Shown one piece after another: positions 16,001-54,064 of a DNA stretch of 64,000 nt. Source of the DNA: Balanoglossus misakiensis. Taxonomy: Eukaryota; Animalia; Hemichordata. Under the pieces are notes generated by a model. That model ran no database searches, was not told the origin of the DNA, and saw only the letters and a program-made list of their open reading frames with translations. How positions within the stretch are numbered: the first letter of the stretch is position 1; each line of letters starts with the position of its first letter. The stretch is from positions 5,791,808-5,855,807 of the forward strand of contig CM082585.2 in the NCBI GenBank assembly GCA_040954595.2, given 5' to 3'. Position numbers and translations under genes: made by a program.

Positions 16001-19000
16001 AAGTCGCAAAATTGTCATTTTTTGATGATTTTCATGAGCTATAACCCATGATTTTTTTCAAAAATCGACGAAATTTTTAGATTTCGCAAAGTCGAAAAAT
16101 TGTCATTTTTTGATGATTTTCATGAGCTATAACCCATGATTTTTTCCAAAAATCGGCGAAATTTTGAGATTTCGCAAAGTCGAAAAATGGTCATTTTTTG
16201 ATGATTTTCATGATCTATAACCCATGATTTTGTTCAAAAGTCGACGAAATTTTGAGATTTCGCAAAGTCGAAAAATGGTATTTTTTTGATGATTTTCATG
16301 AGCTATAACCCATGATTTTGTTGAAAAATCGACGAAATTTTGAGATTTCGCAAAGTCGAAAAATGGTCATTTTTTGATGATTTTCATGAGCTATAACCCA
16401 TGATTTTTTTCAAAAATCGACGAAATTTTGAGATTTCGCAAAGTCGAAAAATTGACATTTTTTGATGATTTTCATGAGCTATAACCCATGATTTTTTTCA
16501 AAAATCGACGAAATTTTGAGATTTCGCAAAGTCGAAAAATTGTCATTTTTTGATGATTTTCATGAGCTATAACCCATGGTTTTTTCCAAAAATCGGCGAA
16601 ATTTTGAGATTTCGCAAAGTCGAAAAATGTTCATTTTTTGATGATTTTCATGAGCTATAACCCATGATTTTGTTCAAAATTCGACGAAATTTTGAGATTT
16701 CGCAAAGTCGAAAAATGGTCATTTTTTGATGATTTTCATGAGCTATAACCCATGATTTTGTTCCAAAATCGACAAAATGTTGAGATTTCGCAAAATCGAA
16801 AAATGGTCATTTTTTGATGATTTTCATGAGCTATAACCCATGATTTTGTTCAAAAATCGACGAAATTTTGAGATTTCGCAAAGTCGAAAAATGGTCAATT
16901 TTGATGATTTTCATGAGCTATAACCCATGATTTTGTTCAAAAGTCGACGAAATTTTCAGATTTCGCAAAGTCGAAAAATGGTCATTTTTGATGATTTTCA
17001 TGAGCTATAACCCATGATTTTGTTCAAAATTCGACGAAATTTTGAGATTTCGCAAAGTCGAAAATGGTCAATTTTTGATGATTTTCATGAGCTATAACCC
17101 ATGATTTTGTTCAAAAATCGACGAAATTTTGAGATTTCGCAAAGTCGAAAAATGATCAATTTTTGATGATTTTCATGAGCTATAACCCATGATTTTGTTC
17201 AAAAATCGACAAATTTTTGAGATTTCGCAAAGTCGAAAAATGGTCATTTTTTGATGATTTTCATGAGCTATAACCCATGATTTTGTTCAAAAATCGACAA
17301 ATTTTTGAGATTTCGCAAAGTCGAAAAATGGTCATTTTTTGATGATTTTCATGAGCTATAACCCATGATTTTGTTCAAAAATCGACGAATTTTTGAGATT
17401 TCGCAAAGTCGAAAAATGGTCATTTTTTGATGATTTTCATGAGCTATAACCCATGATTTTTTTCAAAAATCGACGAAATTTTGAGATTTCGCAAAGTCGC
17501 AAAATTGTCATTTTTTGATGATTTTCATGAGCTATAACCCATGATTTTTTTCAAAAATCGACGAAATTTTGAGATTTCGCAAAGTCGAAAAATTGTCATT
17601 TTTTGATGATTTTCATGAGCTATAACCCATGATTTTTTCCAAAAATCGGCGAAATTTTGAGATTTCGCAAAGTCGAAAAATGATCAATTTTTGATGATTT
17701 TCATGAGCTATAACCCATGATTTTGTTCAAAAATCGACAAATTTTTGAGATATCGCAAAGTCGAAAAATGGTCATTTTTTGATGATTTTCATGAGCTATA
17801 ACCCATGATTTTTTTCAAAAATCGACGAAATTTTGAGATTTCGCAAAGTCGAAAAATGGTCATTTTTTGATGATTTTCATGAGCTATAACCCATGATTTT
17901 GTTCAAAAGTCGACGAAATTTTGAGATTTCGCAAAGTCGAAAAATGGTCATTTTTGATGATTTTCATGAGCTATAAACCATGATTTTGTTAAAGAAGTCG
18001 ACGAAATTTTGAGATTTCGCAAAGTCGAAAAATGGTCATTTTTTGATGATTTTCATGAGCTATAACCCATGATTTTGTTAAAGAAGTCGACGAAATTTTC
18101 AGATTTCGCAAAGTCGAAAAATGGTCATTTTTTGATGATTTTCATGAGCTATAACCCATGATTTTTTTCAAAAATCGACGAAATTTTGAGATTTCGCAAA
18201 GTCGAAAAATGGTCAATTTTTGATGATTTTCATGAGCTATAACCCATGATTTTTTTCAAAATTTGACGAAATTTTGAGATTTCGCAAAGTCGAAAAATGG
18301 TCATTTTTGATGATTTTCATGAGCTATAACCCATGATTTTGTTCAAAAATCGACGAAATTTTGAGATTTCGCAAAGTCGAAAATGGTCAATTTTTGATGA
18401 TTTTCATGAGCTATAACCCATGATTTTGTTCAAAAATCGACGAAATTATGAGATTTCGCAAAGTCGAAAAATGATCAATTTTTGATGATTTTCATGAGCT
18501 ATAACCCATGATTTTGTTCAAAAATCGACAAATTTTTGAGATTTCGCAAAGTCGAAAAATGGTCATTTTTTGATGATTTTCATGAGCTATAACCCATGAT
18601 TTTGTTCAAAAATCGACAAATTTTTGAGATTTCGCAAAGTCGAAAAATGGTCATTTTTTGATGATTTTCATGAGCTATAACCCATGATTTTTTTCAAAAA
18701 TCGACGAAATTTTGAGATTTCGCAACGTCGAAAAATGGTCAATTTTTGATGATTTTCATGAGCTATAACCCATGATTTTTTTCAAAATTTGACGAAATTT
18801 TGAGATTTCGCAAAGTCGAAAAATGGTCAATTTTTGATGATTTTCATGAGCTATAACCCATGATTTTTTTCAAAAATCGACGAAATTTTGAGATTTCGCA
18901 AAGTCGAAAAATGGTCAATTTTTTATGATTTTCATGAGCTATAACCCATGATTTTTTTCAAAAATCGACGAAATTTTGAGATTTCGCAAAGTCGAAAAAT

Positions 19001-22000
19001 GGTCAATTTTTGATGATTTTCATGAGCTATAACCCATGATTTTTTTCAAAAATCGACGAAATTTTGAGATTTCGCAAAGTCGAAAAATGGTCAATTTTTG
19101 ATGATTTTCATGAGCTATAACCCATGATTTTTTTCAAAAATCGACGAAATTTTGAGATTTCGCAAAGTCGAAAAATGGTCAATTTTTGATGATTTTCATG
19201 AGCTATAACCCATGATTTTTTTCAAAAATCGACGAAATTTTGAGATTTCGCAAAGTCGAAAAATGGTCATTTTTTGATGATTTTCATGAGCTATAACCCA
19301 TGATTTGTTTCAAAAATCGACGAAATTTTGAGATTTCGCAAAGTTTAAAAATGGTCATTTTTTGATAATTTTCATGAGCTATAACCCATGATTTTTTTCA
19401 AAAATCGACGAAATTTTGAGATTTCGCAAAGTCGAAAAATGGTCATTTTTGATGATTTTCATGAGCTATAACCCATGATTTTGTTAAAGAAGTCGACGAA
19501 ATTTTGAGATTTCGCAAAGTCGAAAAATGGTCATTTTTGATTATTTTCATGAGCTATAACCCATGATTTTTTTCAAAAATCTACGAAATGTTGAGATTTC
19601 GCAAAGTCGAAAAATGGTCAATTTTTGATGATTTTCATGAGCTATAACCCATGATTTTTTTCAAAAATCGACGAAATTTTGAGATTTCGCAAAGTCGAAA
19701 AATGGTCAATTTTTGATGATTTTCATGAGCTATAACCCATGATTTTTTTCAAAAATCGACGAAATTTTGAGATTTCGCAAAGTCGAAAAATGGTCATTTT
19801 TTGATGATTTTCATGAGCTATAACCCATGATTTGTTTCAAAAATCGACGAAATTTTGAGATTTCGCAAAGTTTAAAAATGGTCATTTTTTGATAATTTTC
19901 ATGAGCTATAACCCATGATTTTTTTCAAAAATCGACGAAATTTTGAGATTTCGCAAAGTCGAAAAATGGTCATTTTTGATGATTTTCATGAGCTATAACC
20001 CATGATTTTGTTAAAGAAGTCGACGAAATTTTGAGATTTCGCAAAGTCGAAAAATGGTCATTTTTGATTATTTTCATGAGCTATAACCCATGATTTTTTT
20101 CAAAAATCTACGAAATGTTGAGATTTCGCAAAGTCGAAAAATGGTCAATTTTTGATGATTTTCATGAGCTATAACCCATGATTTTTTTCAAAAATCGACG
20201 AAATTTTGAGATTTCGCAAAGTCGAAAAATGGTCAATTTTTGATGATTTTCATGAGCTATAACCCATGATTTGTTTCAAAAATCGACGAAATTTTGAGAT
20301 TTCGCAAAGTCGAAAAATGGTCAATTTTTGATGATTTTCATGAGCTATAACCCATGATTTTTTTCAAAAATCGACGAAATTTTGAGATTTCGCAAAGTCG
20401 AAAAATGGTCATTTTTGATGATTTTCATGAGCTATAACCCATGATTTTGTTAAAGAAGTCGACGAAATTTTGAGATTTCGCAAAGTCGAAAAATGGTCAT
20501 TTTTGATTATTTTCATGAGCTATAACCCATGATTTTTTTCAAAAATCTACGAAATGTTGAGATTTCGCAAAGTCGAAAAATGGTCAATTTTTGATGATTT
20601 TCATGAGCTATAACCCATGATTTTTTTCAAAAATCGACGAAATTTTGAGATTTCGCAAAGTCGAAAAATGGTCAATTTTTGATGATTTTCATGAGCTATA
20701 ACCCATGATTTTTTTCAAAAATCGACGAAATTTTGAGATTTCGCAAAGTCGAAAAATGGTCATTTTTTGATGATTTTCATGAGCTATAACCCATGATTTG
20801 TTTCAAAAATCGACGAAATTTTGAGATTTCGCAAAGTTTAAAAATGGTCATTTTTTGATAATTTTCATGAGCTATAACCCATGATTTTTTTCAAAAATCG
20901 ACGAAATTTTGAGATTTCGCAAAGTCGAAAAATGGTCATTTTTGATGATTTTCATGAGCTATAACCCATGATTTTGTTAAAGAAGTCGACGAAATTTTGA
21001 GATTTCGCAAATTCGAAAAATGGTCATTTTTGATTATTTTCATGAGCTATAACCCATGATTTTTTTCAAAAATCTACGAAATGTTGAGATTTCGCAAAGT
21101 CGAAAAATGGTCAATTTTTGATGATTTTCATGAGCTATAACCCATGATTTTTTTCAAAAATCGACGAAATTTTGAGATTTCGCAAAGTCGAAAAATGGTC
21201 AATTTTTGATGATTTTCATGAGCTATAACCCATGATTTTTTTCAAAAATCGACGAAATTTTGAGATTTCGCAAAGTCGAAAAATGGTCAATTTTTGATGA
21301 TTTTCATGAGCTATAACCCATGATTTTTTTCAAAAATCGACGAAATTTTGAGATTTCGCAAAGTCGAAAAATGGTCAATTTTTGATGATTTTCATGAGCT
21401 ATAACCCATGATTTTTTTCAAAAATCGACGAAATTTTGAGATTTCGCAAAGTCGAAAAATGGTCATTTTTGATGATTTTCATGAGCTATAACCCATGATT
21501 TTGTTAAAGAAGTCGACGAAATTTTGAGATTTCGCAAAGTCGAAAAATGGTCATTTTTTGATGATTTTCATGAGCTATAACCCATGATTTTTTTCAAAAA
21601 TCGACGAAATTTTGAGATTTCGCAAAGTCGAAAAATGGTCATTTTTGATGATTTTCATGAGCTATAACCCATGATTTTGTTAAAGAAGTCGACGAAATTT
21701 TGAGATTTCGCAAAGTCGAAAAATGGTCATTTTTTGATGATTTTCATGAGCTATAACCCATGATTTTGTTCAAAAGTCGACGAAATGTTGAGATTTCGCA
21801 AAGTCGAAAAATGGTCATTTTTGATGATTTTCATGAGCTATAACCCATGATTTTTTTCAAAATTTGACGAAATTTTGAGATTTCGCAAAGTCGAAAAATG
21901 GTCAATTTTTGATGATTTTCATGAGCTATAACCCATGATTTTGTTCAAAAATCGACGAAATTTTGAGATTTCGCAAAGTCGAAAAATGGTCAATTTTTGA

Positions 22001-25000
22001 TGATTTTCATGAGCTATAACCCATGATTTTTTTCAAAAATCGACGAAATTTTGAGATTTCGCAAAGTCGAAAAATGGTCATTTTTTGATGATTTTCATGA
22101 GCTATAACCCATGATTTTTTTCAAAAATCGACGAAATTTTGAGATTTCGCAAAGTCGAAAAATGGTCATTTTTTGATGATTTTCATGGGCTATAACCCAT
22201 GATTTTTTTCAAAAATCGACGAAATGTTGAGATTTCGCAAAGTCGAAAAATGGTCAATTTTTGATGATTTTCATGAGCTATAACCCATGATTTTTTTCAA
22301 AAATCGACGAAATTTTGAGATTTCGCAAAGTCGAAAAATGGTCAATTTTTGATGATTTTCATGAGCTATAACCCATGATTTTTTTCAAAAATCGACGAAA
22401 TTTTGAGATTTCGCAAAGTCGAAAAATGGTCATTTTTTGATGATTTTCATGAGCTATAACCCATGATTTTTTTCAAAAATCGACGAAATTTTGAGATTTC
22501 GCAAAGTCGAAAAATGGTCATTTTTTGATGATTTTCATGAGCTATAACCCATGATTTTTTTCAAAAATCGACGAAATTTTGAGATTTCGCAAAGTCGAAA
22601 AATGGTCATTTTTGATGATTTTCATGAGCTATAACCCATGATTTTGTTAAAGAAGTCGACGAAATTTTGAGATTTCGCAAAGTCGAAAAATGGTCATTTT
22701 TGATTATTTTCATGAGCTATAACCCATGATTTTTTTCAAAAATCTACGAAATGTTGAGATTTCGCAAAGTCGAAAAATTGTCAATTTTTGATGATTTTCA
22801 TGAGCTATAACCCATGATTTTGTTAAAGAAGTCGACGAAATTTTCAGATTTCGCAAAGTCGAAAAATGGTCATTTTTTGATGATTTTCATGAGCTATAAC
22901 CCATGATTTTTTTCAAAAATCGACGAAATTTTGAGATTTCGCAAAGTCGAAAAATGGTCAATTTTTGATGATTTTCATGAGCTATAACCCATGATTTTTT
23001 TCAAAAATCGACGAAATTTTGAGATTTCGCAAAGTCGAAAAATGGTCAATTTTTGATGATTTTCATGAGCTATAACCCATGATTTTTTTCAAAAATCGAC
23101 GAAATTTTGAGATTTCGCAAAGTCGAAAAATGGTCAATTTTTGATGATTTTCATGAGCTATAACCCATGATTTTTTTCAAAAATCGACGAAATTTTGAGA
23201 TTTCGCAAAGTCGAAAAATGGTCAATTTTTGATGATTTTCATGAGCTATAACCCATGATTTTTTTCAAAAATCGACGAAATTTTGAGATTTCGCAAAGTC
23301 GAAAAATGGTCATTTTTTGATGATTTTCATGAGCTATAACCCATGATTTTTTTCAAAAATCGACGAAATTTTGAGATTTCGCAAAGTCGAAAAATGGTCA
23401 TTTTTTGATGATTTTCATGAGCTATAACCCATGATTTTTTTCAAAAATCGACGAAATTTTGAGATTTCGCAAAGTCGAAAAATGGTCATTTTTGATGATT
23501 TTCATGAGCTATAACCCATGATTTTGTTAAAGAAGTCGACGAAATTTTGAGATTTCGCAAAGTCGAAAAATGGTCATTTTTGATTATTTTCATGAGCTAT
23601 AACCCATGATTTTTTTCAAAAATCTACGAAATGTTGAGATTTCGCAAAGTCGAAAAATTGTCAATTTTTGATGATTTTCATGAGCTATAACCCATGATTT
23701 TGTTAAAGAAGTCGACGAAATTTTCAGATTTCGCAAAGTCGAAAAATGGTCATTTTTTGATGATTTTCATGAGCTATAACCCATGATTTTTTTCAAAAAT
23801 CGACGAAATTTTGAGATTTCGCAAAGTCGAAAAATGGTCAATTTTTGATGATTTTCATGAGCTATAACCCATGATTTTTTTCAAAAATCGACGAAATTTT
23901 GAGATTTCGCAAAGTCGAAAAATGGTCAATTTTTGATGATTTTCATGAGCTATAACCCATGATTTTTTTCAAAAATCGACGAAATTTTGAGATTTCGCAA
24001 AGTCGAAAAATGGTCAATTTTTGATGATTTTCATGAGCTATAACCCATGATTTTTTTCAAAAATCGACGAAATTTTGAGATTTCGCAAAGTCGAAAAATG
24101 GTCATTTTTTGATGATTTTCATGAGCTATAACCCATGATTTGTTTCAAAAATCGACGAAATTTTGAGATTTCGCAAAGTCGAAAAATGGTCATTTTTTGA
24201 TGATTTTCATGAGCTATAACCCATGATTTTTTTCAAAAATCGACGAAATTTTGAGATTTCGCAAAGTCGAAAAATGGTCATTTTTGATGATTTTCATGAG
24301 CTATAACCCATGATTTTGTTAAAGAAGTCGACGAAATTTTGAGATTTCGCAAAGTCGAAAAATGGTCATTTTTTGATGATTTTCATGAGCTATAACCCAT
24401 GATTTTGTTCAAAAGTCGACGAAATGTTGAGATTTCGCAAAGTCGAAAAATGGTCATTTTTGATGATTTTCATGAGCTATAACCCATGATTTTTTTCAAA
24501 ATTTGACGAAATTTTGAGATTTCGCAAAGTCGAAAAATGGTCAATTTTTGATGATTTTCATGAGCTATAACCCATGATTTTTTTCAAAAATCGACGAAAT
24601 TTTGAGATTTCGCAAAGTCGAAAAATGGTCATTTTTTGATGATTTTCATGAGCTATAACCCATGATTTGTTTCAAAAATCGACGAAATTTTGAGATTTCG
24701 CAAAGTCGAAAAATGGTCATTTTTTGATGATTTTCATGGGCTATAACCCATGATTTTTTTCAAAAATCGACGAAATGTTGAGATTTCGCAAAGTCGAAAA
24801 ATGGTCATTTTTTGATGATTTTCATGAGCTATAACCCATGATTTTTTTCAAAAATCGACGAAATTTTGAGATTTCGCAAAGTCGAAAAATGGTCATTTTT
24901 TGATGATTTTCATGAGCTATAACCCATGATTTTTTTCAAAAATCGACGAAATTTTGAGATTTCGCAAAGTCGAAAAATGGTCATTTTTGATGATTTTCAT

Positions 25001-26737
25001 GAGCTATAACCCATGATTTTGTTAAAGAAGTCGACGAAATTTTGAGATTTCGCAAAGTCGAAAAATGGTCATTTTTTGATGATTTTCATGAGCTATAACC
25101 CATGATTTTGTTCAAAAGTCGACGAAATGTTGAGATTTCGCAAAGTCGAAAAATGGTCATTTTTGATGATTTTCATGAGCTATAACCCATGATTTTTTTC
25201 AAAATTTGACGAAATTTTGAGATTTCGCAAAGTCGAAAAATGGTCAATTTTTGATGATTTTCATGAGCTATAACCCATGATTTTTTTCAAAAATCGACGA
25301 AATTTTGAGATTTCGCAAAGTCGAAAAATGGTCATTTTTTGATGATTTTCATGAGCTATAACCCATGATTTGTTTCAAAAATCGACGAAATTTTGAGATT
25401 TCGCAAAGTCGAAAAATGGTCATTTTTTGATGATTTTCATGGGCTATAACCCATGATTTTTTTCAAAAATCGACGAAATGTTGAGATTTCGCAAAGTCGA
25501 AAAATGGTCATTTTTTGATGATTTTCATGAGCTATAACCCATGATTTTTTTCAAAAATCGACGAAATTTTGAGATTTCGCAAAGTCGAAAAATGGTCATT
25601 TTTTGATGATTTTCATGAGCTATAACCCATGATTTTTTTCAAAAATCGACGAAATTTTGAGATTTCGCAAAGTCGAAAAATGGTCATTTTTGATGATTTT
25701 CATGAGCTATAACCCATGATTTTGTTAAAGAAGTCGACGAAATTTTGAGATTTCGCAAAGTCGAAAAATGGTCATTTTTTGATGATTTTCATGAGCTATA
25801 ACCCATGATTTTGTTCAAAAGTCGACGAAATGTTGAGATTTCGCAAAGTCGAAAAATGGTCATTTTTGATGATTTTCATGAGCTATAACCCATGATTTTT
25901 TTCAAAATTTGACGAAATTTTGAGATTTCGCAAAGTCGAAAAATGGTCAATTTTTGATGATTTTCATGAGCTATAACCCATGATTTTGTTCAAAAATCGA
26001 CGAAATTTTGAGATTTCGCAAAGTCGAAAAATGGTCAATTTTTGATGATTTTCATGAGCTATAACCCATGATTTTTTTCAAAAATCGACGAAATTTTGAG
26101 ATTTCGCAAAGTCGAAAAATGGTCATTTTTTGATGATTTTCATGAGCTATAACCCATGATTTGTTTCAAAAATCGACGAAATTTTGAGATTTCGCAAAGT
26201 CGAAAAATGGTCATTTTTTGATGATTTTCATGGGCTATAACCCATGATTTTTTTCAAAAATCGACGAAATGTTGAGATTTCGCAAAGTCGAAAAATGGTC
26301 ATTTTTGATGATTTTCATGAGCTATAACCCATGATTTTGTTCAAAAGTCGACGAAATGTTGAGATTTCGCAAAGTCGAAAAATGGTCATTTTTTGATGAT
26401 TTTCATGAGCTATAACCCATGATTTTTTTCAAAAATCGACGAAATGTTGAGATTTCGCAAAGTCGAAAAATGGTCATTTTTTGATGATTTTCATGAGCTA
26501 TAACCCATGATTTTTTTCAAAAATCGACGAAATTTTGAGATTTCGAAAAGTCGAAAAATGGTCATTTTTGATGATTTTCATGAGCTATAACCCATGATTT
26601 TTTATCAAATATGAAGAATTTTTGAAAATTTTCAAAGTCGAAAAATTGGCATTTTTGATGATTTTCATGAGCTATAACCCATGATTTTTTATCAAATATG
26701 AAGAATTTTTGAAAATTTTCGAAAAATTGGCATTTTT
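7045..26737. repeat. Satellite DNA array, 88-bp monomer, about 224 copies
   Basis: Monomer GTCATTTTTTGATGATTTTCATGAGCTATAACCCATGATTTTTTTCAAAAATCGACGAAATTTTGAGATTTCGCAAAGTCGAAAAATG starts at 7045, 7133, 7221 (period 88); uninterrupted head-to-tail; last two units (26600-26737) diverged. Confidence 0.98.
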
Positions 26738-40613: not shown

Positions 40614-43600
40614 CTACTGAATCTCTTCTTCCTCGTCATCCTGCTCGCCGAATGTCAAATGACCCTGCCCCCGTTCTGGGTCGTGCATTCTCGAGATGCG
40701 CACCAGAGGATTGGCAGTGATTTTGCTGGAAAAGAAACGTGAACCTTACACAATGGATGGTGTCTACGTTTTTACTTGCAAATTGTCCATTGCGAGTCGA
40801 CTTGTACTTCTTGAGATTCGATCACCGACCTCCTGCACCAACTGACATAGCCAGCAAAACCATTACTCCAAAACCAATATTAGAAATTGAATGCCGCACA
40901 AACCAACTTTTGAAGCCCTCAGACGGAAAGCTATGTTTAATTTCTATGAGCGTGTTCATAATAGCACCAATGTTCTGGTCTCGACGGTTTTTAGATCGGA
41001 TGCTCTATCCTACTCAAAAACTTATAAAATGTACAGACAACTGATGTATTTTTAACCGTTTTTTTAGTACTTTTTTATGTGGTGTTTTCTTTTTTTATAT
41101 CTGTCAAGTCTATGGGATTTTTTATATCCTGAAATAAATATTATTATTGTACTGTAATGAGAATAGTGGCATACCTCATATCCTGCGGTGTCAGGAAGAT
41201 AAATTGTCTCATTTTCTGTTCTTTGGCAACTTTCAACATCATATCCACGCTGATTCGTCGGTTGACCATGTCCTGTTCAAGAAAAGCCAAATGTCACTAA
41301 ATGCCCACTCTCACACATCACATATCTTGATATAAACATTCTACATGCTCAGTACATTGTAAGTGAAGCCTCGTAAACGCACCATTTCTCATGCGATAAC
41401 CTATACATATATACACAATGTATTACTATTAAGTTTTTCAATAATGATGTACTGTAAAACACTTTATTTTTGCGAGTTGAAGTTTTCGCAATATCGAGAG
41501 AGGCCACTGTTTCGCGAGTATTAATTTTCGCGTTCTCTTATTTCATTCACTGCATCGTTAATCCGAAGAAAAATTACCTGACTTTTTATTTTCACGCTAT
41601 TTTGGCTCTCGCTTATTTGGCGAAAATTTATTGCTCGCGAAAATAAAGTGTTTTACAGTATTTTGATGTGCACAACATGCATATATTGAATATATTGAAC
41701 TTCTAACACAGGCACGAGTAGTTGAGGTCGTCTTACCATGAACACATCAAACTCATCCAGCGCTCTGAATGGCGAGTCCATCGCCTCCCACAAAGCCATA
41801 ATGAAGCACACAGTTGAGAAGGATCGCTCGCCTCCTGATAAAGCCTTCATATCTTTCGCCATTGCACTCTCTCCTTGAGTTGGTTGCACCTGAAACCGGA
41901 GAATACTGTTTAAGTCTGTGATATCCAGACAGGAACATGCAAGACCATAGACACATAACATACATGTAAGCTTTATATATCATTTGTATGTAGTAAGCAT
42001 AGCTGCTTCTTCACACAGGACTATATATCCCGGGATATCATTTTTTATTTACACCACATAGAAAGTAAAGCACATGAAAAGACTACAGTGGAAAGAATTA
42101 TATTGAAACTCAGAACTAAATATTAAACACTAAAGCTTTATCTACAGTCAGAACACCAGTACACACAAGCAGAGGATTATTGACATAATTTTTGATTTAA
42201 CATAACTAATTATAATTATTGTGTAATAATGGGGTAAGAAAACTATTATTATTTAGTGTGTAGTCACATATAATTCTGAAATGATAAAAGTATCTACCAC
42301 GTAAGTGTAAAAATATAGTTTCAGTATACCTGTATCCATGGACAGCTGACAATAATTAGAATTTCATTAATTGGTTATCATTCACATACATGAACATACA
42401 GTAAAACACTTTACTTTCACGAGTTGAAATTTTCGCAGTATCGAGAGAGGCCACTGTTTCACGAGTATTAATTTTCGCGTTCTCTAATTTCATTCACTGC
42501 ATCGTTATCTTCAAAAAAAATTACGCGACTTTTTATTTTCACGCTATTTTGGCTCTTGCGTATTTCGCGAAAATTTATTGCTCGTGAAAATAAAGTGTTT
42601 TACAGTATGTAATTATGCATATTCCTGCATGCAGCCATTAGCACTACAAGGGCTAAATGCTGGTCATTGTAAGATTTATCCCAATATATGGTGGACCAAC
42701 GAACGTGTCGCAAACAATTTGCGGGCCAACTGGGTGATAATATTCAACGAAGGGGGACTTACTGACAAATCTAGCACCTGTTCCCTATGGCTGAACTTCA
42801 TCTTGCCTAGGAAGCCCCGCTGAGAGAGCATTGTAATAAAGTACATCTTGGCTCGCAGAGCTATTGACTGACGGAACTGAACATATGCATTCCTGCGCTC
42901 ATTAAGCATTTGGTCAAATTTCTGGGAAGCAAATACACAAAAGAAAATATCTTAAATACATGGGAAGGGGGATAAGAGCTGAAAAACAGACTTACTGAGA
43001 CTTCAAGAAGATGTTGTTTATGTTTAAAATCCAATTTACCAGATATACCCCTGACAGAAAGCATGCGTACAAAAAGGATCTTAGTTCGGAGAGATAAATG
43101 GTGAAGAAAACGGCCGTACGCTTCCTTCCTCTGTAGAATGATAGACTCAAATGTCTAGATGAAAGAAACACAAGAAGTTTCTAATCAACAAACACGACGT
43201 AAAATGTTTCGCAGGAAGTTTCAAGTATACCAGATTTTTTGAACATACTATCACCTGTATATTTTTTCACTAAGCATGTTCTTGAAAAACAAAAGATAGT
43301 AATTAATAATAATGTAAATTATGTAAAAAAATTCCATATGAAAGCAACTTAGAATACAATGAAGTGAACTTTAATTTTTTTTCAAACCTTAACCACTGCT
43401 TTTAAGTTCTTGATTTCCGACTTAATTTTCAAGTACTTCTCCCGAGCCTCATTGTAAAGCCTGATTATTTCAGCAGGGTCGCCATAGCTGGGTTGGGTGA
43501 GATCAGAATTTGTAGTGTGTAAAGTTGGATTGACGTTAATTCCATATATTGTATTCCCCTATCATTTTCCCCCCTGAAAATCTGTCCGCAAGGTACATAC

Positions 43601-46600
43601 ATACTACTAGCTTAATTCAATTGAATGCAATAGATGTAAATGACGAAAGTGTGAATATTCAACAGAAATGACGAAGTGTGAATATTCAATAGATGTAAAT
43701 GATGAAAGTGTGAATATTCAATAGATGTAAATGACGAAAGTGTGAATATTCAATAGATGTAAATGACGAAAGTGTGAATATTCAATAGATGTAAATGACG
43801 ATAGTGTGAATATTCAATAGATGTAAATGACGAAAGTGTGAATATTCAATAGATGTAAATGACGAAAGTGTGAATATTCAATTGATGTAAATGATGAAAG
43901 TGTGAATATTCAATAGATGTAAATGACGAAAGTGTGAATATTCAATAGATGTAAATGACGAAAGTGTGAATATTCAATATATGTAAATGACGAAAGTGTA
44001 AATATTCAATAGATGTAAATGACGAAAGTGTGAATATTCAGTCTCCCTAACCCTTACTTTTGTTCTTCATGCTGAATATTTCTAGTAATTTGAGCTATTT
44101 CACTGTCGATGTTGGCCGCCGTGCGCCGTACATTGATTCGCTCTGGATAGATCTGCTTTGCCTTCTCCTCTGCTTCCTGTAAAAATGAAATAAAAAAAAT
44201 CGTCAGATATTATAAAATATATCTTGCAGGTGATAAAACTCAATAAAAGACAAATTGAGATTCATTTTGAGATGGAAATATTCCACAAATCAAACATGAA
44301 CATTCAGAAGCAGCAGCGTAGCCTCTTGTACCTACCGCAATGTCTCGTTCTTTCAACTTGTGAGTCTTCTTTAATTCTTCAATCTTCTTATCGTGATCTT
44401 TTCTCTTTCCTTCATAGTGTTTCAGGTGATCCTTAGCCGTCGCTTCATCCATATTAGCTTTGCCCAATTCTTCCTGGTGAAACAAGAACAAAGCCAGGCA
44501 AAAAGTTTAAAGCCCCAAAAGCTGCCACTTTACCATTTAATTTTAATCGATAAAATACTGTAAAACGGGTTATTTTCGTGACAGGAAATTTTCTCGATAT
44601 CAAGGGAGGTAACTGTTGCGCGAGGATTAATTTTCGCATTCTTATTTTTACTGCATCGTTTTCTCCGAAAACCATTTTAAACAACTTTTTATTTTCACGT
44701 TTTTTTTGGCTCTCACATATTTTGCGAAAATAACCCGTTTTACAGTACTTCAATCTTCTCCTTATCCTTTGTCGACACCGCATTCAAATGTGTATATTCT
44801 AATGTTGAAGATGATAGGTAAAGACACTGTTTTTATCTCCCTGAATCGAAATTTGTAGTAACTAACCTTCAGGGGATCAACCCGCTCGGCTAGTCCATTG
44901 ATATCTTTATTGACGTCTTGATAAGTCTCCTCCGCTTCCTTGTACTGGACCTCCAGTTCTGCCACAGTCTGCTTGACGACGTCCAGCTGTTGTTGGTGTT
45001 CCACCATCTGTTCCTCGTAGCTTCTCACTTCCTCTTCGAGAGTTGTGACATCCACTGGGGTGGGCTCTTCGAAGTTTTTCAGTTCATCAATATCCTGAAG
45101 GAAGAGCATTCCGGACATGAATACGTGTCCATATCTATTGCCTTTAAGGATGTACGCGCAGAACATAAACCGGCAAACTTCACGCACTCGTCTTTCTCCC
45201 ATAGGATTACATTGATAATTGCTAAAAAAACAAACTTCTACTATTGTCATTTTCACCAACGTACATCCTTAAACATGCATTTCCAATATTTTTAACAAAA
45301 AAAAAACTCAGCAATTTCCAAAAATGTCCATGCAGTTTCATAGAATTCAGTAAGCTAAATACAGGAAGACCTATTTGACAGCATATTGGACACTATTCTA
45401 CACAATCAGCCAAATTAAAAATATTATTCTTTAATGTGCTTTTCTGATTTTCTGAAACCTTTCCAAACTGTTACAAACCATTTCCATTTACACCTCCCTA
45501 CTGCTGAGTGGAACTTACAAAGTTTAGTTTATTGCACTGGTCTTGTATTTTCATCTTCCTTGTCTGCATTTGGTTCTTCTGCGTCGTATTAGCTCTGATG
45601 CTGTTATTGATCTCAGAATTCTGTCTGCGGACATCGTCATAGTCTGCTCTCAAAGACATCAGTTCATGTTCAGTTTGCCTTCGAAAGAAAAAGCGTATTC
45701 AAATGAGCCTTTTCAGTGCTTACATATACAGACCATGTTGACCCTTTCACCACCATGGTTTGGTCCAAATCTATTGTTTGATATGGTAAACAGAGGTGAA
45801 AGGGTTAAAGGGCCAAAGTCTCTCTCTCGCTTCCATTTTTCCATTATTAATGTTTGATACAAGACACAGTTTATGTTATTGTACATGTGGATATATATAG
45901 AGAATATACGTTCGACCACATTTTGGCAAGATTTTTACTCTCATATCCTACAAGCGGGATGGAAGTTGTGTGTAGTTGAACATTGATGCTCTATATAACT
46001 ACATGTACAATAACATAAACGGTATCTTGTATCAAACATAATTAATGGAAAAATGGCTAAACAAACCCCAGGGTCTGCCGGACAATATGAAACGAAATAA
46101 AAAGACCACATTTTTGGTCATACCTGATTTGTTGTTCAACATCCGCTGTGATGTATCTTGCATTGGTGGAATTGTTGGAATAATATCGCTGATCAGCACC
46201 CGCGTACACCTGGTCGCCTGCAATGGTGAATGCCTCACGACAGTTCTGCGGCGGGTGTCTGCGCAGGTAGGTACGAGCTTCGGCACTGTCAGCTATCAGG
46301 AGGGTACTCTCCACACCCCGCTGTCAAAAATACATGAAAATATACATGAAAACACGCATCAAGAAATACATGTACACGAATAGTAAAACCAGTCCTTTGG
46401 ACCAATCCTCTGATCGCCACTCCAGATACTGTGGAGAGATTCACACCCAAATTTGAATAGAATTTCTGTCATGTTTGACCTCAAGATTAAGGTCAACAAA
46501 TCTTTACACATAAAAAAATAAGGACAAAATTGCCACAAAGCACCCGTAATGGATTATATCTCAAAACCGATTAACATGTGTACATTTTAGTACATTGTCT

Positions 46601-49600
46601 TTGAACATATACCACTGAGTAAACATCTACGTCGTTTGGTGGTGGAAAAATCACATTAGATTTGTGAATTATCGCATTTGATGGAAAGTTTCAACTCACC
46701 TGATCAACCAAGCAGTTAAAGATGACAGGGTTATCCGTGTGGACTATGTCTAGAAATGACGGATATCGTTTGTCCTGTATAGCACCATCACCCAGATCAT
46801 ACTCATTGCCCTGTGAACAAAACAATGTTTTTTTAAACTCACTTGCACACGTCAGAAAACGCTTGTAGTGCAAATGCTTACAGGGTGGGCGTATTCCTAT
46901 CTGCGGTTGCCGGTAGCTGTCCCATACAACACAGTTGATAGCAAGTCAAAGTGTAAGTGTAACAGCTACAATGTACATCATTGCGAACAATTTGGTTGTT
47001 ACTTTGTATTACACTGTACATCATGGTCAACAATGTGTTGTTACTTTTTATCAAATTTTGATGTAACATGTACATTGTATTAGTTGGCAGGGTCTCCCTA
47101 AATAGTAGGATAAATACTGATGGTGTGTTAAAGGGACAAAGTCTCTCTCTCACTGCCCTTTTTTCCATTAATTATATTTGATACAAGAGGCCGTTTGTTA
47201 TTCTACATGTGGATATATAGTGTCTGAACGTTCAACTACACACACCTTCCATCCCTCTTATAGACAGGAGAGTGAAAAAATTCGCCAAAATGAATAATCG
47301 TTCTTTACCATTTATTCATTTTGGGCGAGTTTTTACTCTCATATCATACAAACAGGATGGAAGTTGTGTGTTGTTGATCATTGATTCACTATATATCCAC
47401 ATGTACATTAACATAAACAGTGTCTTGTATCAAACATAATTAATGGAAAAAGGCCAGCGAGAGAGAGACTTTGTCCCTTTAATAAACAGAAAAGTCAGGC
47501 ATATAGTTAGACTACCCTCCCTTATAAAAAAAACCAATTATGGACTATGAGTAATGTTTTTAGATATGAACATATTGTAACACAAAATGGCTGCCAGGAA
47601 TCATATTTGAGCTTAGCAGGATGTATGCAAATTCTCATTTCTTACCATAAATGAGCTGGTGATAACTGACGGTTTGGACCTGTTCGGTGGTACATGTTTC
47701 GCCAGCAGTTTGTTAAAAAGCCTCTCGTCATCATGATTGTCACAGCAGTAAGAATGGAGGAGATTCTTGAGGCAGGCTTCTACTCCTAAAGCCCAATTCT
47801 GGTCTGTCAGTCGCAGATGAGCACCTGGCAATCAAAGAGAAACTTATAGAGGTCAGAGGTTAGAGTTCGCAGTTCAGAGTTGAATCAGAACTTGGCAGTT
47901 TGGGCCCATGTTTCTGGAGGGCTAGAGACTGTACTCCAGGAAATGTATTTATCAATCAATTCGACTTTTTCCTTGAATTCTTCTTGCTCAGTTGTTTCAA
48001 TTTCTTTTTTCTGCAAAGCATGTTGAAATCGCTCTTACCTAATGGTCCGACAGGTTTCTTTCTGAACAGCCTCTGCTGGTACATTTGGTCAACTTCTCTC
48101 ATCAGACCCGGCACCCAATTGCCAAACACAGCCAGCTTGTTCTTTCGGCTGGCTTCCAGATTTTTCAGTCGACGCTGAGTGTTGTCAATATTACCTTTCA
48201 GATCTTGTTCTTGTTTTCTGTATTCAGAATATATTACCAAAAAAAAAAATGTCAGAGTGGTCGCAATTCTGGTTACCTTAAATAGGTTTCTGCTACCTAG
48301 GTTAGTAATAGATATCAAGATGGCCAGATAAAAAATTTAACCTGGATAGCAAAACTACATTTAAGTTGTGAGAATTCTTGCTGCAGTCTCATCATACCAA
48401 CTCCATTAGCTGTATCTTTTGGCTTTATTTTCAGTATATTTGTTCTGTGTACACCAAAGGCAATTTCTTTGTCTACTCCAAAAAGCATGCTATTATACCC
48501 AGTACTCAGCTTGTTAACTTATGTTGTATGTGTGTAAGGACCATTATGAATTCTAGTCTGGACATATGTGACCCCTGACCCGTGACTCAGCATACCTCAA
48601 TGTATATGACTGCTCCTTGTTGTGGGTAATAGCTTTTGTGAACTGGTCAAGCTGGTGGTCTGTAGTGGCTAGCTGAGCTGTTAACGTGGCCAGCTCATTT
48701 TCAAATATCTGTACTTGCTCTTCTCGCTGTTGTCGCTCTTCCTCAAAATCATGCTGGGCTCTGAAAACCGACAAAACATTCACGTTAAAGGTATATTAGA
48801 GTTTTCAACTTCTTATGATTTAGCTGCAACGTTCCAGGTGGGGCTTCAACAAGGAACATTCCAGTTATAAAAATTTCAACAACGAACATTTCGCTAATCC
48901 AAAAGTGGACATTTCAATAATGACAACTTCATAAATGAAAAAGTTCAACAATGGACAACGAATACCTAACCATTACAATTTCACCATGAACACTTCAATA
49001 AGAATTTCACCAATTAACATTTTCACAAAATAATTCACAATGGATGTTTCACCAATGAACGTTTCTACAAGAAACATTTTGTCATTGCATGTAGTCACAT
49101 CACACCCACACTATGCATCATGAAACTTCAACTATGATGCAGGGCCTAACAAAATCTTCAAAATTTACTTACGTATTCTTCATCTCATTAATTTTCTCTT
49201 CTAGCTGTTGTTTGTCTCTCTCGGTATTTCTTAGATTGCTGTGTAACTTTCGCAGTTCAGCCTGAGAAGAATAAATAAATGATAGTAAAAATAGATCTAC
49301 CAGGATGCCAACACGAGCACAGATTTCACCTTACAGACTTTGACTCTTAGCAATTAAATAAATCAGCAACAACAGATTATTTTGAGGCATAGCAGTTGCT
49401 TAAAAAACTGACAAGACGAGGCTGTGAGCGAATTGTTTTTTTTTATAGATGACCCCTGAAATTCCACAATAATTTCAGAAAACAGAATTCAACATACAAA
49501 ACAAAATAAAACAAAGGAAAGAAAAAACACCAGCACTGACATCGACAGAACTAAGAAAATGTCAGAAAAATAATAAAAATTTCAAAATCGACAGAAGTGG

Positions 49601-50482
49601 TGATTCCAAGGAACGATATAATATTCCCCCTGAGCCTTATCAGAATATAGACTGCCGACATACCTGGGCAGTTTTGTATGCCTTTTTACTCAATTCCAGG
49701 GCACTTCTTGCTTCTTGGTGCTTGGGTTTCACTTCTTTCAACTTCTCGCCCAAAAGAGTCAGTCTATTCTGGATTTCGGTACACCTGCCTGAACATTTTT
49801 TGAGTTTTTCCTGCGAGGATCAGAAAATTTGATTGGTCAGTTACCTTACAGAGACATTCACAGGAAAACAAAAAGAAAACTGGGTGTTCATCATCTTCTT
49901 TCCATGCAAATAAAATTTCTCCATAGACTTGACACATAGATTGGCGGCCATTTTGAATTTGAGATAATCTGACACATGCTTGCACTCTTGTTCAAAATTT
50001 TGCATGGTGACTCCTAAATCTAAATTTTAAGAGAATAATTTAACGTTGCCTTGAGCAAATTATGAGAAAAGGTTTAAGACTTTGATTTTTAAAGACCCAG
50101 ACTCCTTATCATGTACCTTTGATTCATTCACTTTCTGATCAAATTTTGGTTTTCTGGCCTCTTCTTGTCGTATGGCTTTAGAAATTGGCTCCAGCTCCTG
50201 CGAATGATGAAAACAAAAATGGTTTAAGAAGGTACACAACTTTGTCCATTCTTTCATTTCCACCACTACATGTGCTCTGTGAGTTTATAAAAAAATCGAG
50301 ATTATACGCGCAACGGTTTTCTAGTTTTTGATGTGGACGGACGGACATACATACATACATACATACATACATACATACATACATACATACACACATACAT
50401 ACATACATACATACATACATACATACATACATACATACATACATACATACATACAGACAGACAGACATACATCATACATACA

Positions 50483-50513
<31 letters not shown>

Positions 50514-52789
50514 CATACATACATACATACATACATACAGACGCAACTGATTCCATAAGGTCCCATGGTATATATACATAACCAAATGGGACCTAAAAAC
50601 CCCACCTTCTCAATTTCCGCCACTTGCGCCCATGCAGCCTCGTGCTCCAGATGTTCCTTCTTCTTCTTGAGCTTCTCCACGCTGCCCACAGCTTTGACTC
50701 TGTTCTCGAGTTGCATCACTTCTTTTTCCAGGTCTGGCAAACCCTGGAGGTCAAAGGTTGAAAAGAGCCAATCGCATGAACTATCACAAGTATGGTAAAT
50801 AACCACATGAATATTCAAAAGCCAAACTTGATAATCACAAATGATGATATATGTTTTGCAGGTAGATTAAAATCCTCAAAATTGTAATATTACCAAAGTG
50901 TAATTCACAGACAAAACACAAATTCACACACTGTAATCACTGCAAGTTTGACTGCTCAAATGTTCGACCACATTTTTCGTTTCAAAAGTGTTCATTGTAC
51001 CACAATATGTACCAAAACATAAAGATTAAAAAAATCCCCACCTCTTCCCTTCTCTTCACTGTGTCTTCCATTAAAGTTTTCTGTTCTTGTATTGTACTGT
51101 AATCGTTCGTCATTTGTTCAAGTTGTGTTGCCTTCAAGAAAAACTAATAACGAAGAAAAACACAAAAACATTCCAAAATACTTTAATGCCATTTTCAACA
51201 TAATTTGAACAAATTTTACTGAGGTTGCTCCTAGAAACCTCTACATGGCAAATTTCAATGTAATTTGACTGAGTTTCACAGGAAATAATATTCTGTCCCA
51301 AATGACAAATTTTGCACACCACCCCCCAATACATATATACTATTTCAAGTGACTGACATTATCCCTATGTATTGTCATAATTCTGCCAATAGATATTGTC
51401 ACAATTTTAACAAATCTGACCAAATCTTTTGAGGTATGCATGCCAACTTAGATGGCCCCTGGAACCAGGATACCAGGTTTTCCTTACCTTGTACTTATCA
51501 TGAGGGTTCTTGGAATGTAGGAAGTTTCGACTGGTGTCTTGATTCAGAATAGCCACTGGGTTATCAACCTAGGAGATAAAATTACTGACACATGTTACGT
51601 GTCTGGCTGTTCTAAAGCATAAACATACCCGGAAAATCTTTCACTGGATGCTGAAAAACCTGTCATCTGGAAATGACAACGCCGTGGGTCACATGGCCAG
51701 ATCACCTGATTGATATTAAAGGTATACGATCACTTATGGAAAATTAGCCATAGTTACCATGGCAAATTGAGATCTAGCCAATCACGGATTTTCAGTGGGT
51801 GGCACACGCGAAAAAAAAGAGCGCCACCATATGTTCTTTAGAACGCTCAAATACTCAATTTCAGCCATATATGGGCGTATGTAAATTGGAGGTGACTGTA
51901 TACCTTTAAAGAATACTATGGTGAAAGAAATTGTTGCAAACCTGAATGTTAAACTGATCCAGGATGTACGACAGCTCCTCTCGCTTCCTCGACACCACTC
52001 GACCACCGCTGGACTTCAGTTTGTACTGCGATGATCCATCTGTGGTTAGCTTCCTTTCCACGACGATGGAGTCGCCGTAATCCTCGGGCTTGTAGGCATC
52101 TGTGCCTCGATTTCTGAGTTTGATGGACACCTCGGCAAAACTGGGGGGAAGAAGAATTTAGGTCAATCCCATGATTGTCGTATGCACACGTGCATAATTT
52201 CATTTCTAAATGTTCTGCAAATTTTGCATTCAAATAGTGGACTGCCTTCGCTACTTCATATTTCATGTGCGCCGTATAATTTGACTTCAGTTTTGTCCCT
52301 TCTTTTCACCCAATTTGCTGTCTTTTTCCGATCTCCGACACAGACTATGGTCGCCGCCATCTTGTATGTTGTTAGGACAGCACTCTGCCTGATGCATTGA
52401 CTGTATACAGTTTTTATATCCAGAGTCTCTGGTTTGAGACATGTGCATAAGACGATCATCGCCCTTTAAACTTTCACTACACAGATGAAGTTCTCAGGGA
52501 TTACAGACTTACTTTTGTCCGTCTTTAATGAAGGATTTGACAGAAGAGCCCCTGCTGGTGACTGTGGCTTTGCCACCCAGGCCGACCACCATGGCTGTCA
52601 GCACTGCACTCTTACCACCTACACGAAAACAATCGGAAAATCATTAACGAGTCTGTCTCCTCTAAATGAATCCGGCATTCTGGAATGTACTCCCACGTCG
52701 CGCCAGAGTCTTATCCAGGATACCACAGGAAAAGGAGACTCAGGAAAAATTCAGGGAATGTGACTGGACTCGTTCAGTTCAAATTGCAT

Positions 52790-52841
<52 letters not shown>

Positions 52842-54064
52842 TCACTTTAAATAAAAAGAAATACATTTTCATCTGAGTTGCTGAAAGACATGAAAGACAG
52901 TCATCCGAATCAGTTCAATGTTTGACAGGCAGAGAGTTATTTCCACACTTCAAACCCCCCCCCCCAAAAAAAAAACACTTGAAAACAAGCCCTGCCCTAT
53001 CGAATTTCAATTCATACTTACTTTGCATGGTTATTTTTCAGTTTTTATTGCTTTTTCAATAACCTTGAGTAATAAAAATGTCTTAGAAACCCTGGTAACA
53101 CTTCCACTACCAATTACGTACAACTGCATTGATATGCTTTAGGAAGAACCCAGTAACACTCATGAGCTCTCAAAACTGTCAACCCCATTTACCTATGTAG
53201 TTAATGTAAAGGTCCAACTTTACCATAGAAAAAAATAGATTTGGACCAAACCATTGCTGGTGAAAGACAACCTTTGGCCAGACACTTACTTCCGTTGCGT
53301 CCAACGATAAAGTTGACATTGGGACCAAAGTTGAATTCCAGTCGACTGTGACACATGAAATTCTTCAGTGTCACTTTCTCGATGATGCCAACTTCAGCCT
53401 CCGCCTAAAATACACACACAAAACACAGGGTGCATATTTAACAACACTGTTGATATTGCCCTTGATATCCCAATAGATCAGCTGATAGTGATAGAAATGT
53501 GTGCTCATGTAGGTAATGTTTTCCTGTTTTGCTTCCTTCATATTTCCAATTCTAATTAATTTAAAGGGAAGGGGTCATCGCGCCGCGTGGGAGTCCCCCT
53601 TGATGAGAATATGTCTTCCCATACCAGCGCAAACCCCACTGCTGTCGCCATGACCTACTAGGATCTTCAGTTGCTGTCATGCGCAGTCTACGCTACGGTC
53701 GGCTGCTTCGTTCATTCTGAGAATTATCTTATTTGAGGGATTTGTGGGTGAATTCTAATGTTTATCGACAACCAACAAGCACGGCGCGACGACCCCTTCA
53801 CTTTAAAGGGACAGTAACAGCAATGGATGGAGACAAGAAACAGAAGCCAGGAAAATAAGTCACATCCTTCTGTCTAACAGTGTATAAGCCCGACCCACTC
53901 ACCATCACTGGGGGTACAAAACCCGGATTCTGGGACTGGTCCATTTCATCATCACTCTCGCCTTCCTCCTCCTCCTCCTCCTCCATTCTCCGTGGCTCTC
54001 GCAGCCGCACCCGCTTATCCGGAGGGGAATTTTCATCTGGCTTCGAGGAGCGCCGTGTTGCCAT
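40614..54064 (-). CDS. SMC6: Structural maintenance of chromosomes protein 6, complete, 1105 aa using one exon-21 variant
   Basis: Exons (minus): 54064-53903, 53404-53290, 52618-52513, 52140-51942, 51568-51488, 51143-51042, 50743-50606, 50197-50117, 49810-49664, 49261-49173, 48760-48596, 48217-48039, 47824-47646, 46810-46700, 46320-46124, 45678-45519, 45094-44867, 44473-44336, 44176-44058, 43487-43388, [43154-42996 or 42921-42763], 41889-41737, 41272-41175, 40725-40614(TAG). Motifs [14 protein letters not shown], Walker [24 protein letters not shown], hinge PVGPLGAH, signature [13 protein letters not shown], Walker [28 protein letters not shown] are SMC6-type. Confidence 0.96.
41452..41658. 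mobile_element. Tc1/mariner-type MITE (TA TSD, CTGTAAAACAC TIR)
   Basis: TA-CTGTAAAACACTTTATTTT...AAAATAAAGTGTTTTACAG-TA. Confidence 0.8.
42399..42605. mobile_element. Tc1/mariner-type MITE, same family as 41452-41658
   Basis: Highly similar internal sequence; TA flanks. Confidence 0.8.
42763..42921 (-). CDS. SMC6: SMC6 alternative exon 21b (159 nt, phase 0-0), appears closer to canonical SMC6
   Basis: ...TTGCTTCCCAG|AAATTT...TTGTCA|GTAAGT; open frame [53 protein letters not shown]. Confidence 0.9.
42996..43154 (-). CDS. SMC6: SMC6 alternative exon 21a (159 nt, phase 0-0)
   Basis: ...TTTCATCTAG|ACATTT...GTCTCA|GTAAGT; open frame [53 protein letters not shown]. Confidence 0.8.
43628..44040. 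repeat. 32-bp minisatellite (~13 units) in an SMC6 intron
   Basis: Unit AATATTCAATAGATGTAAATGACGAAAGTGTG at 43681, 43713 and onward. Confidence 0.95.
44558..44745. mobile_element. Related TA-flanked MITE (CTGTAAAACGGG TIR)
   Basis: TA-CTGTAAAACGGGTTATTTTCG...CGAAAATAACCCGTTTTACAG-TA. Confidence 0.75.
45738..46056. mobile_element. piggyBac-type MITE abutting a degraded Kolobok-like MITE at a shared TTAA
   Basis: ...GGTGAAAGGG-TTAA-AGGGCCAAAGTCTCTCTCTC...; second part resembles 47132-47478. Confidence 0.65.
47132..47478. mobile_element. Kolobok-like palindromic MITE (TTAA TSD, AGGGACAAAG termini)
   Basis: TTAA-AGGGACAAAGTCTCTCTCTC...GAGAGAGAGACTTTGTCCCT-TTAA; nearly the whole 347 bp is an inverted repeat; RR...YY termini with TTAA fit Kolobok. 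Confidence 0.8.
50346..50538 (+). repeat. (CATA)n microsatellite
   Basis: Direct reading. Confidence 0.95.
51720..51905. mobile_element. Kolobok-like MITE (TTAA-AGGTATAC...GTATACCT-TTAA)
   Basis: Short TIR and TTAA on both sides. Confidence 0.6.
52790..52841 (+). repeat. (GATA)n microsatellite
   Basis: Direct reading. Confidence 0.95.
53565..53802. mobile_element. Kolobok-like MITE in SMC6 intron 1
   Basis: TTAA-AGGGAAGGGGTCATCGCGCCG...CGGCGCGACGACCCCTTCACT-TTAA. Confidence 0.7.

Follow-up and report, generated by a model that had tools for sequence, protein, structure and literature searches.

Tandem, probably alternative exons of SMC6 in hemichordates, crinoids and molluscs encode the segment matching the loader-binding helix of the human and yeast proteins

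The 64,000-nucleotide stretch of Balanoglossus misakiensis DNA analysed here (the window) carries an SMC6 gene with two neighbouring, homologous versions of one exon. The question raised by this locus is whether the gene switches between them and, if so, which surface of the protein is exchanged. The gene was modelled under the guidance of two hemichordate SMC6 proteins and consists of 24 exons, encoding 1105 amino acids when one copy of exon 21 is included. The modelled protein shares 862 identities with SMC6 of Ptychodera flava and 785 with that of Glandiceps talaboti; it is full-length, with the split ABC ATPase head, hinge and coiled coils of an SMC6 orthologue. Its Glandiceps orthologue matches human SMC6 at E 9e-266 and yeast Smc5 at ~1e-21. 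The first-pass annotation had described tandem, stop-free exons of 159 nt in phase 0-0, each with a pyrimidine tract plus AG and a TCA/GTAAGT donor, and all of these features were found on the minus strand at the positions listed in Table 1. The ungapped identity of 20/53 amino acids between the copies, termed A and B below, and the 1105-residue product of a single copy were likewise reproduced. In a BLASTP comparison, exons 21a and 21b aligned without gaps (20/52 identical, 38%; 69% positives; E 3e-15), and the two are adjacent homologues of like length with a common frame and compatible splice sites, as is characteristic of tandem-duplicated exons. The spacer separating them is 74 nt long, whereas the one-copy model has 23 introns of 159-873 nt. 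Pfam searches of exons 21a and 21b separately gave no match at E up to 1.

Table 1. Positions of the SMC6 exon pair and of other features in the window.
Feature	Position	Strand	Basis
Whole SMC6 coding region, 24 exons	40614..54064	-	guided gene model
Constitutive SMC6 exon 20, upstream of the pair, encoding coiled coil and ending in phase 0	43388..43487	-	gene model
SMC6 exon 21a (copy A), divergent type, 159 nt, phase 0-0	42996..43154	-	sequence and alignments
GT-AG intron between copies A and B, 74 nt	42922..42995	-	gene model
SMC6 exon 21b (copy B), conserved and ancestral type, 159 nt, phase 0-0	42763..42921	-	sequence and alignments
Constitutive SMC6 exon 22, downstream of the pair, encoding the ABC signature and Walker B	41737..41889	-	gene model
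MITE-like element in the intron following exon 21b; inverted arms of 30 nt, 93% complementary	42394-42610		
Second, similar MITE-like copy, in the next SMC6 intron	~41500-41660		
32-bp minisatellite, 13 copies, SMC6 intron 19	43628-44040		
Intronless 537-codon ORF immediately downstream of SMC6; its N-terminal segment is hydrophobic	39545-37935	-	
88-bp satellite array, ~224 copies, 95% matches	7045-26712		
Broken frames	61250-60714	-	

Outside the exon pair, the window holds several repeats and reading frames (Table 1). The 537-codon ORF had no Pfam match at E up to 0.01; we take its motifs to recall those of SGNH hydrolases. The broken frames presumably resemble a LINE reverse transcriptase.

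Evidence that the two exons serve as alternatives was obtained from relatives, whose isoforms are automated RefSeq or GenBank models. The wider protein search covered the best 120 of 1154 matches as well as 21 cluster listings. Among the matches listed, RefSeq isoform pairs that are identical except at this exon were present in at least 15 species (15/15 pairs extracted from the 21 clusters), comprising one hemichordate (Glandiceps), one crinoid (Antedon) and 13 molluscs (Saccostrea, two Magallana, four Mytilus, two Haliotis, Pomacea, Littorina, Gigantopelta and Ruditapes). The isoforms X1 and X2 of Glandiceps talaboti (XP_077988308.1 and XP_077988309.1) both comprise 1107 amino acids and are identical outside exon 21. 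The exon of X1 matches copy A of the window (52% identical, 26/53 positions differ) and that of X2 is 89% identical to copy B (6/53 positions differ). Copy A is also identical to the Ptychodera exon at 30/53 positions. Further A-type or tandem copies occur in Ptychodera, Crassostrea virginica, Batillaria, Haliotis cracherodii, Anneissia and Pinctada. The only listed SMC6 models of Ptychodera flava (P0005) and Haliotis cracherodii (P0182) contain copy A alone, and A may be the abundant form in some samples. Littorina saxatilis has two annotated SMC6-like loci, both with B, A and skip-both isoforms (P0118, P0171-P0175).

Models departing from strict alternation were also found. Both copies are included in 7 of the 207 proteins scanned, from four species (Anneissia, Antedon X1, Pinctada and Mytilus californianus X1-X4), and both are skipped in 4/207 (Littorina twice, Gigantopelta and one old amphioxus model). 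None of the proteins scanned from vertebrates, amphioxus and cnidarians had a 53-residue insert at the exon 21 position. The mutually exclusive use proposed from the window alone is thus supported by one-copy isoform pairs in at least 15 other species and qualified by both-in models in four species and skip-both models in two. We consider the switch itself very probably real, and the exclusion may be leaky.

The pair was also searched for in metagenomic sequence, where both copies with AG/GT borders were present at 3/80 loci (L003, L004 and L006), scoring 27.9, 30.5 and 35.1 bits, respectively, with a profile independent of these loci. Two coral-like loci (L008 and L011) have a single copy between both flanking exons, and no second copy was seen at L018, a locus without the upstream flanking exon. 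The representative search with copy A returned three matches: two were read-through ORFs containing both copies, and the third (P0216) was dropped as an unrelated repeat protein. A profile search for more tandem models retrieved 24 proteins, mostly coral-like single copies, and no additional named two-copy taxon. At six further SMC6 loci (L024, L028-L030, L034 and L035), the exon 21 segment is strongly divergent and cysteine-rich; in L024 and L028-L030 ~54 nt separate it from the match downstream, a spacing that would suit a locus lacking the intron. Among the listed members, no annotated second copy was found in amphioxus (13 entries), Asterias (2), Nematostella (5), Tubulanus (4), Patella (2), Mizuhopecten (2), unionid mussels including Potamilus (3) and sharks (14), counts which refer to absence from annotation, not from genomes.

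The splice sites of the pair allowed us to consider how joint inclusion might be prevented. Because the exon length of 159 nt is divisible by three and both copies have a GTAAGT donor and a pyrimidine tract with AG acceptor, exclusion enforced by a frameshift and NMD, as well as exclusion by U2/U12 incompatibility, can be set aside. Inspection for docker/selector RNA pairing revealed no common docker among the five longest inverted pairs per region in four regions. The A/B spacers measure 74, 70, 71, ~66, ~114 and 161 nt (the last at L003), and they occur in both copy orders. A distance between donor and branch point below 50 nt has been used as a steric criterion for mutually exclusive exons (Hatje 2017; accessible part of PMC5740500). 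A consensus scan placed the best branch-point-like A at +44 relative to the donor for both the window and L006, and at +52 for L004. The 74-nt spacer would therefore bring the putative branch point within 50 nt of the upstream donor and hinder the joining of A to B, and co-inclusion in the window is likely to be sterically excluded in this way. The spacers of 114 and 161 nt and the L004 candidate at +52 do not fit a strict steric rule.

The first-pass annotation had also argued that both copies are maintained by selection. Nucleotide identity between the copies of the window amounts to 31/53, 39/53 and 18/53 at codon positions 1, 2 and 3, respectively (position 2 versus 3, p = 8e-5), a pattern that backs this claim. 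The frame stayed open in 12% of neutral simulation runs, so that the open frame of copy A is weak evidence on its own; the amino-acid identity between A and B was above that of the neutral simulation (p = 0.013). Copy B is the conserved ancestral type, resembling the single exon of cnidarians and chordates. Since the branch separating it from the hemichordate B type has almost no length, most of the divergence between the copies likely accrued on A, under protein-level constraint. Copy A is the faster-evolving of the two, yet bears the mark of purifying selection.

Whether copy A arose once or repeatedly was addressed with trees of 53 columns, which used 50/73 and 49/80 rows, with near-duplicates and some long rows left out. 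The A copies form clades in hemichordates (97/89), crinoids (98/92) and molluscs (96/89), and bivalve and gastropod A constitute one clade in both trees (96/89 and 92/86). Hemichordate A grouped weakly with hemichordate B (83/64 and 81/59). The order of the copies is A-B in the window, Mytilus, Pinctada, L003 and L004, and B-A in crinoids, L006 and P0215. The weak grouping of hemichordate A with B, together with the two copy orders, hints at a repeated origin of copy A, and 2-3 changes were needed for it on the trees. A single clade of all 18 A rows was not rejected (AU p = 0.435) and is also compatible with these 53 columns and their long branches.

The segment exchanged was located by alignment with characterised SMC6 proteins. 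Exon 21 corresponds without gaps to residues 918-970 of human SMC6 and 952-1004 of yeast Smc6, with copy A aligning to human residues 922-970 and copy B to 921-970. The location proposed earlier, at the end of the C-terminal coiled coil and the start of the head, was confirmed: 27 of the 30 yeast C-terminal neck residues (949-978) lie inside the exon, and the predicted structures of both isoforms show a helix to residue 970 followed by a beta-hairpin, in models from shallow alignments (pTM ~0.3, head unassembled) that inform on local secondary structure only. In human SMC6, residues L939, R940, K942, L943, Y944, D946, N947 and K957 were mutated in three groups, each of which reduced or abolished SIMC1-SLF2 binding (accessible part of PMC12656486). 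Eight of the nine SIMC1-SLF2 contact residues named in that part map inside exon 21, and the ninth, E1008, lies outside. At the yeast neck, Nse6 competes with the Nse4 kleisin, and 3/3 Nse6 and 4/8 Nse5 contacts fall within the exon (residues from the accessible part of PMC10636319). All 12 SMC6 residues named at the interface with HBx likewise map inside it (residues from 10.1101/2025.11.11.685253). As the loader, Nse6 and HBx contacts are concentrated in exon 21, we take this exon to encode the main regulatory docking helix of SMC6. The suggestion that the switch may alter a partner interface is supported by this location on the neck surface; the partner is refined, as the best-documented site is that of the Nse5/6 (SIMC1/SLF1-SLF2) loader, used also by HBx, more than that of NSE4. 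The exon 21 segment was not mentioned in the accessible part of PMC12296160.

Comparison of the copies across taxa revealed how A departs from B on this surface. The position of Y944 is aromatic (F, Y, W or H) in 16/17 B copies, 10/10 single-type exons and 4/18 A copies, and that of L943 is aromatic in 11/17 B and 0/18 A copies; in the window, the two positions read MY in copy B and IL in copy A. The charged anchors are largely retained in A, with R940 present in 14/18 copies, K or R at K942 in 15/18 and K957 mostly kept. Most A copies also retain R926, F945, G956 and H962. The largest B-to-A changes lie at exon positions 26-34, on the documented loader face, and positions 5, 10 and 11 are likewise among the strongly changed columns. 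Loader or HBx contacts make up five of the eight most-changed columns (13/53 columns are contacts; p = 0.016), with the top-eight cut-off set after viewing the table and alignment rows related by descent. Over all 53 columns, loader contacts were no more changed than the rest (Mann-Whitney p = 0.29; p = 0.07 after adding HBx contacts).

The two exons are homologous and under purifying selection, relatives have annotated isoform pairs, and the exon corresponds to the loader-binding helix of human and yeast SMC6. From these established points, the best explanation in our view is that either-or splicing of exon 21 produces two SMC5/6 complexes differing in the docking of an Nse5/6-type loader (SLF1- or SIMC1-SLF2) on the neck, a reading to which we assign a probability of roughly 55%. 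Copy B would give the standard SMC5/6 complex. Copy A would fold in the same way and retain the charged anchors (positions R940, K942 and K957); its hydrophobic face (positions L943, Y944, N947 and Q951) would be altered, and loader binding might thereby be weakened or redirected. In certain tissues or states, altered docking could change the balance of kleisin and loader at the neck gate, with changed loading or ATPase behaviour as the predicted outcome.

The rival that survives best, and one that we regard as unlikely, is that copy A represents an escape or decoy form altering the exposed helix gripped by viral SMC6 antagonists, with B keeping the housekeeping contacts. The position of the complete HBx interface within the exon (10.1101/2025.11.11.685253) agrees with this proposal, as do the role of SMC5/6 as an antiviral factor and the marks of positive selection borne by primate SMC6 (accessible part of 10.1101/202671). 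Copy A also evolves fast between close species: it outpaces the rest of SMC6 in 6/11 species pairs at p < 0.01 (amino-acid changes), and between Mytilus edulis and M. californianus 10/53 residues changed in A and 0/53 in B, compared with 3% of the rest of the protein (p = 1e-5). However, the rate excess may also reflect relaxed selection, and it is uneven, as none is clear in oysters (Magallana versus Saccostrea, 9/55 changed in copy A, p = 0.85) or Haliotis (7/54, p = 0.095), and two very close species pairs have 0 changes in copy A. Moreover, HBx is described as mammal-specific (10.1101/2025.11.11.685253), and no invertebrate antagonist was seen. The HBx-SMC6 interface with its 'leucine key' (same source; PDB 9LWI) forms a viral patch wholly within the exon-encoded segment; with no antagonist known for hemichordates or molluscs, the likeness concerns a shared surface, not a shown arms race. 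Equally tentative is the wider proposition that, in marine invertebrates, a splicing switch arisen once at the bilaterian base or at least three times swaps the helix common to loader and viral antagonists, as a fast-evolving face against DNA viruses.

Somewhat less plausible still is that copy A serves a germline or stage-specific complex through a changed kleisin (NSE4) face of the neck and not through the loader face. The strong changes at exon positions 5, 10 and 11 speak for it, and a testis-type kleisin paralogue exists in mammals; the biggest changes, however, concern positions 26-34 of the documented loader face.

It is also improbable, in our judgement, that copy A merely persists as a minor isoform, tolerated because structural constraint on it is weak, and that its function is interchangeable with that of B. 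Over 14 taxa the mean identity is 54% among B copies and 28% among A copies, with B-B identity higher in 91/91 (non-independent) species pairs; such low A-A identity fits relaxed constraint and a shared new function equally well. Copy A tolerates small in-frame indels (51-58 amino acids across relatives) and has a weaker acceptor (score 8.6, versus 12.2 for copy B and a constitutive mean of 11.9), and a second copy is missing among the members listed for amphioxus, sea stars, sharks, Patella, Mizuhopecten, Potamilus and Tubulanus. Against mere tolerance, A is open and in frame across the bivalve/gastropod clade, three hemichordates and two crinoids, the codon-position bias is strong, and R926, F945, G956 and H962 persist in most copies. 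Finally, joint inclusion of both exons, a dead duplicate or an annotation artefact is very improbable. The both-in models in four species and the weakness of an open frame as evidence (12% under neutrality) speak for this rival; against it stand at least 15 same-gene isoform pairs with one copy each, the A-only listed protein of Ptychodera, the lack of a 53-residue insert in the proteins scanned from vertebrates, amphioxus and cnidarians and the identity above neutral expectation (p = 0.013).

Set against known systems, the favoured loader-docking switch combines familiar elements. Tandem-duplicated mutually exclusive exons are known as a kind, and those described earlier (accessible part of PMC5740500; PMC8373072; PMC9741552) are likewise homologous neighbours, matched in length and phase, through which a single structural segment is swapped; a short donor-branch point distance is a candidate exclusion mechanism there (accessible part of PMC5740500), as here. 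Unlike those exons, the second copy in SMC6 is missing from the vertebrate proteins that were examined and changes at about twice the rate of the first, and both copy orders occur. The alternative human loaders and the Nse4/Nse6 neck-gate switch of yeast (accessible parts of PMC12656486 and PMC10636319) also vary the SMC6 neck, at residues 939-957 and 963-984, respectively; in those systems SMC6 stays fixed and its partner changes, whereas here splicing would exchange the docking helix of SMC6 itself. SMC6 isoforms already exist in RefSeq as automated models, such as X1 and X2 of Glandiceps talaboti, which carry orthologous A and B exons without description. SMC6 is unmentioned in the main text of PMC5740500, PMC8373072 and PMC9741552, and the word 'isoform' is absent from the accessible part of a 2024 review (PMC10954462). 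In agreement with the first-pass annotation, which knew of no description of such a switch, no publication on an SMC6 exon swap was found in the open-access literature. The exon pair is real and conserved, apparently undescribed, and lies on what we regard as the most informative surface of SMC6.

The neck of SMC6 is where the kleisin and Nse5/6-type loaders compete in the regulation of SMC5/6, and where HBx binds too. The natural helix swap in hemichordates, crinoids and molluscs provides variant pairs for testing loader docking against ATPase activity, DNA loading and the silencing of extrachromosomal DNA, and the large RNA-seq archives of oysters and mussels make its regulation directly testable. 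It would show how an essential, slowly evolving restriction factor varies a vulnerable surface while keeping its housekeeping form.
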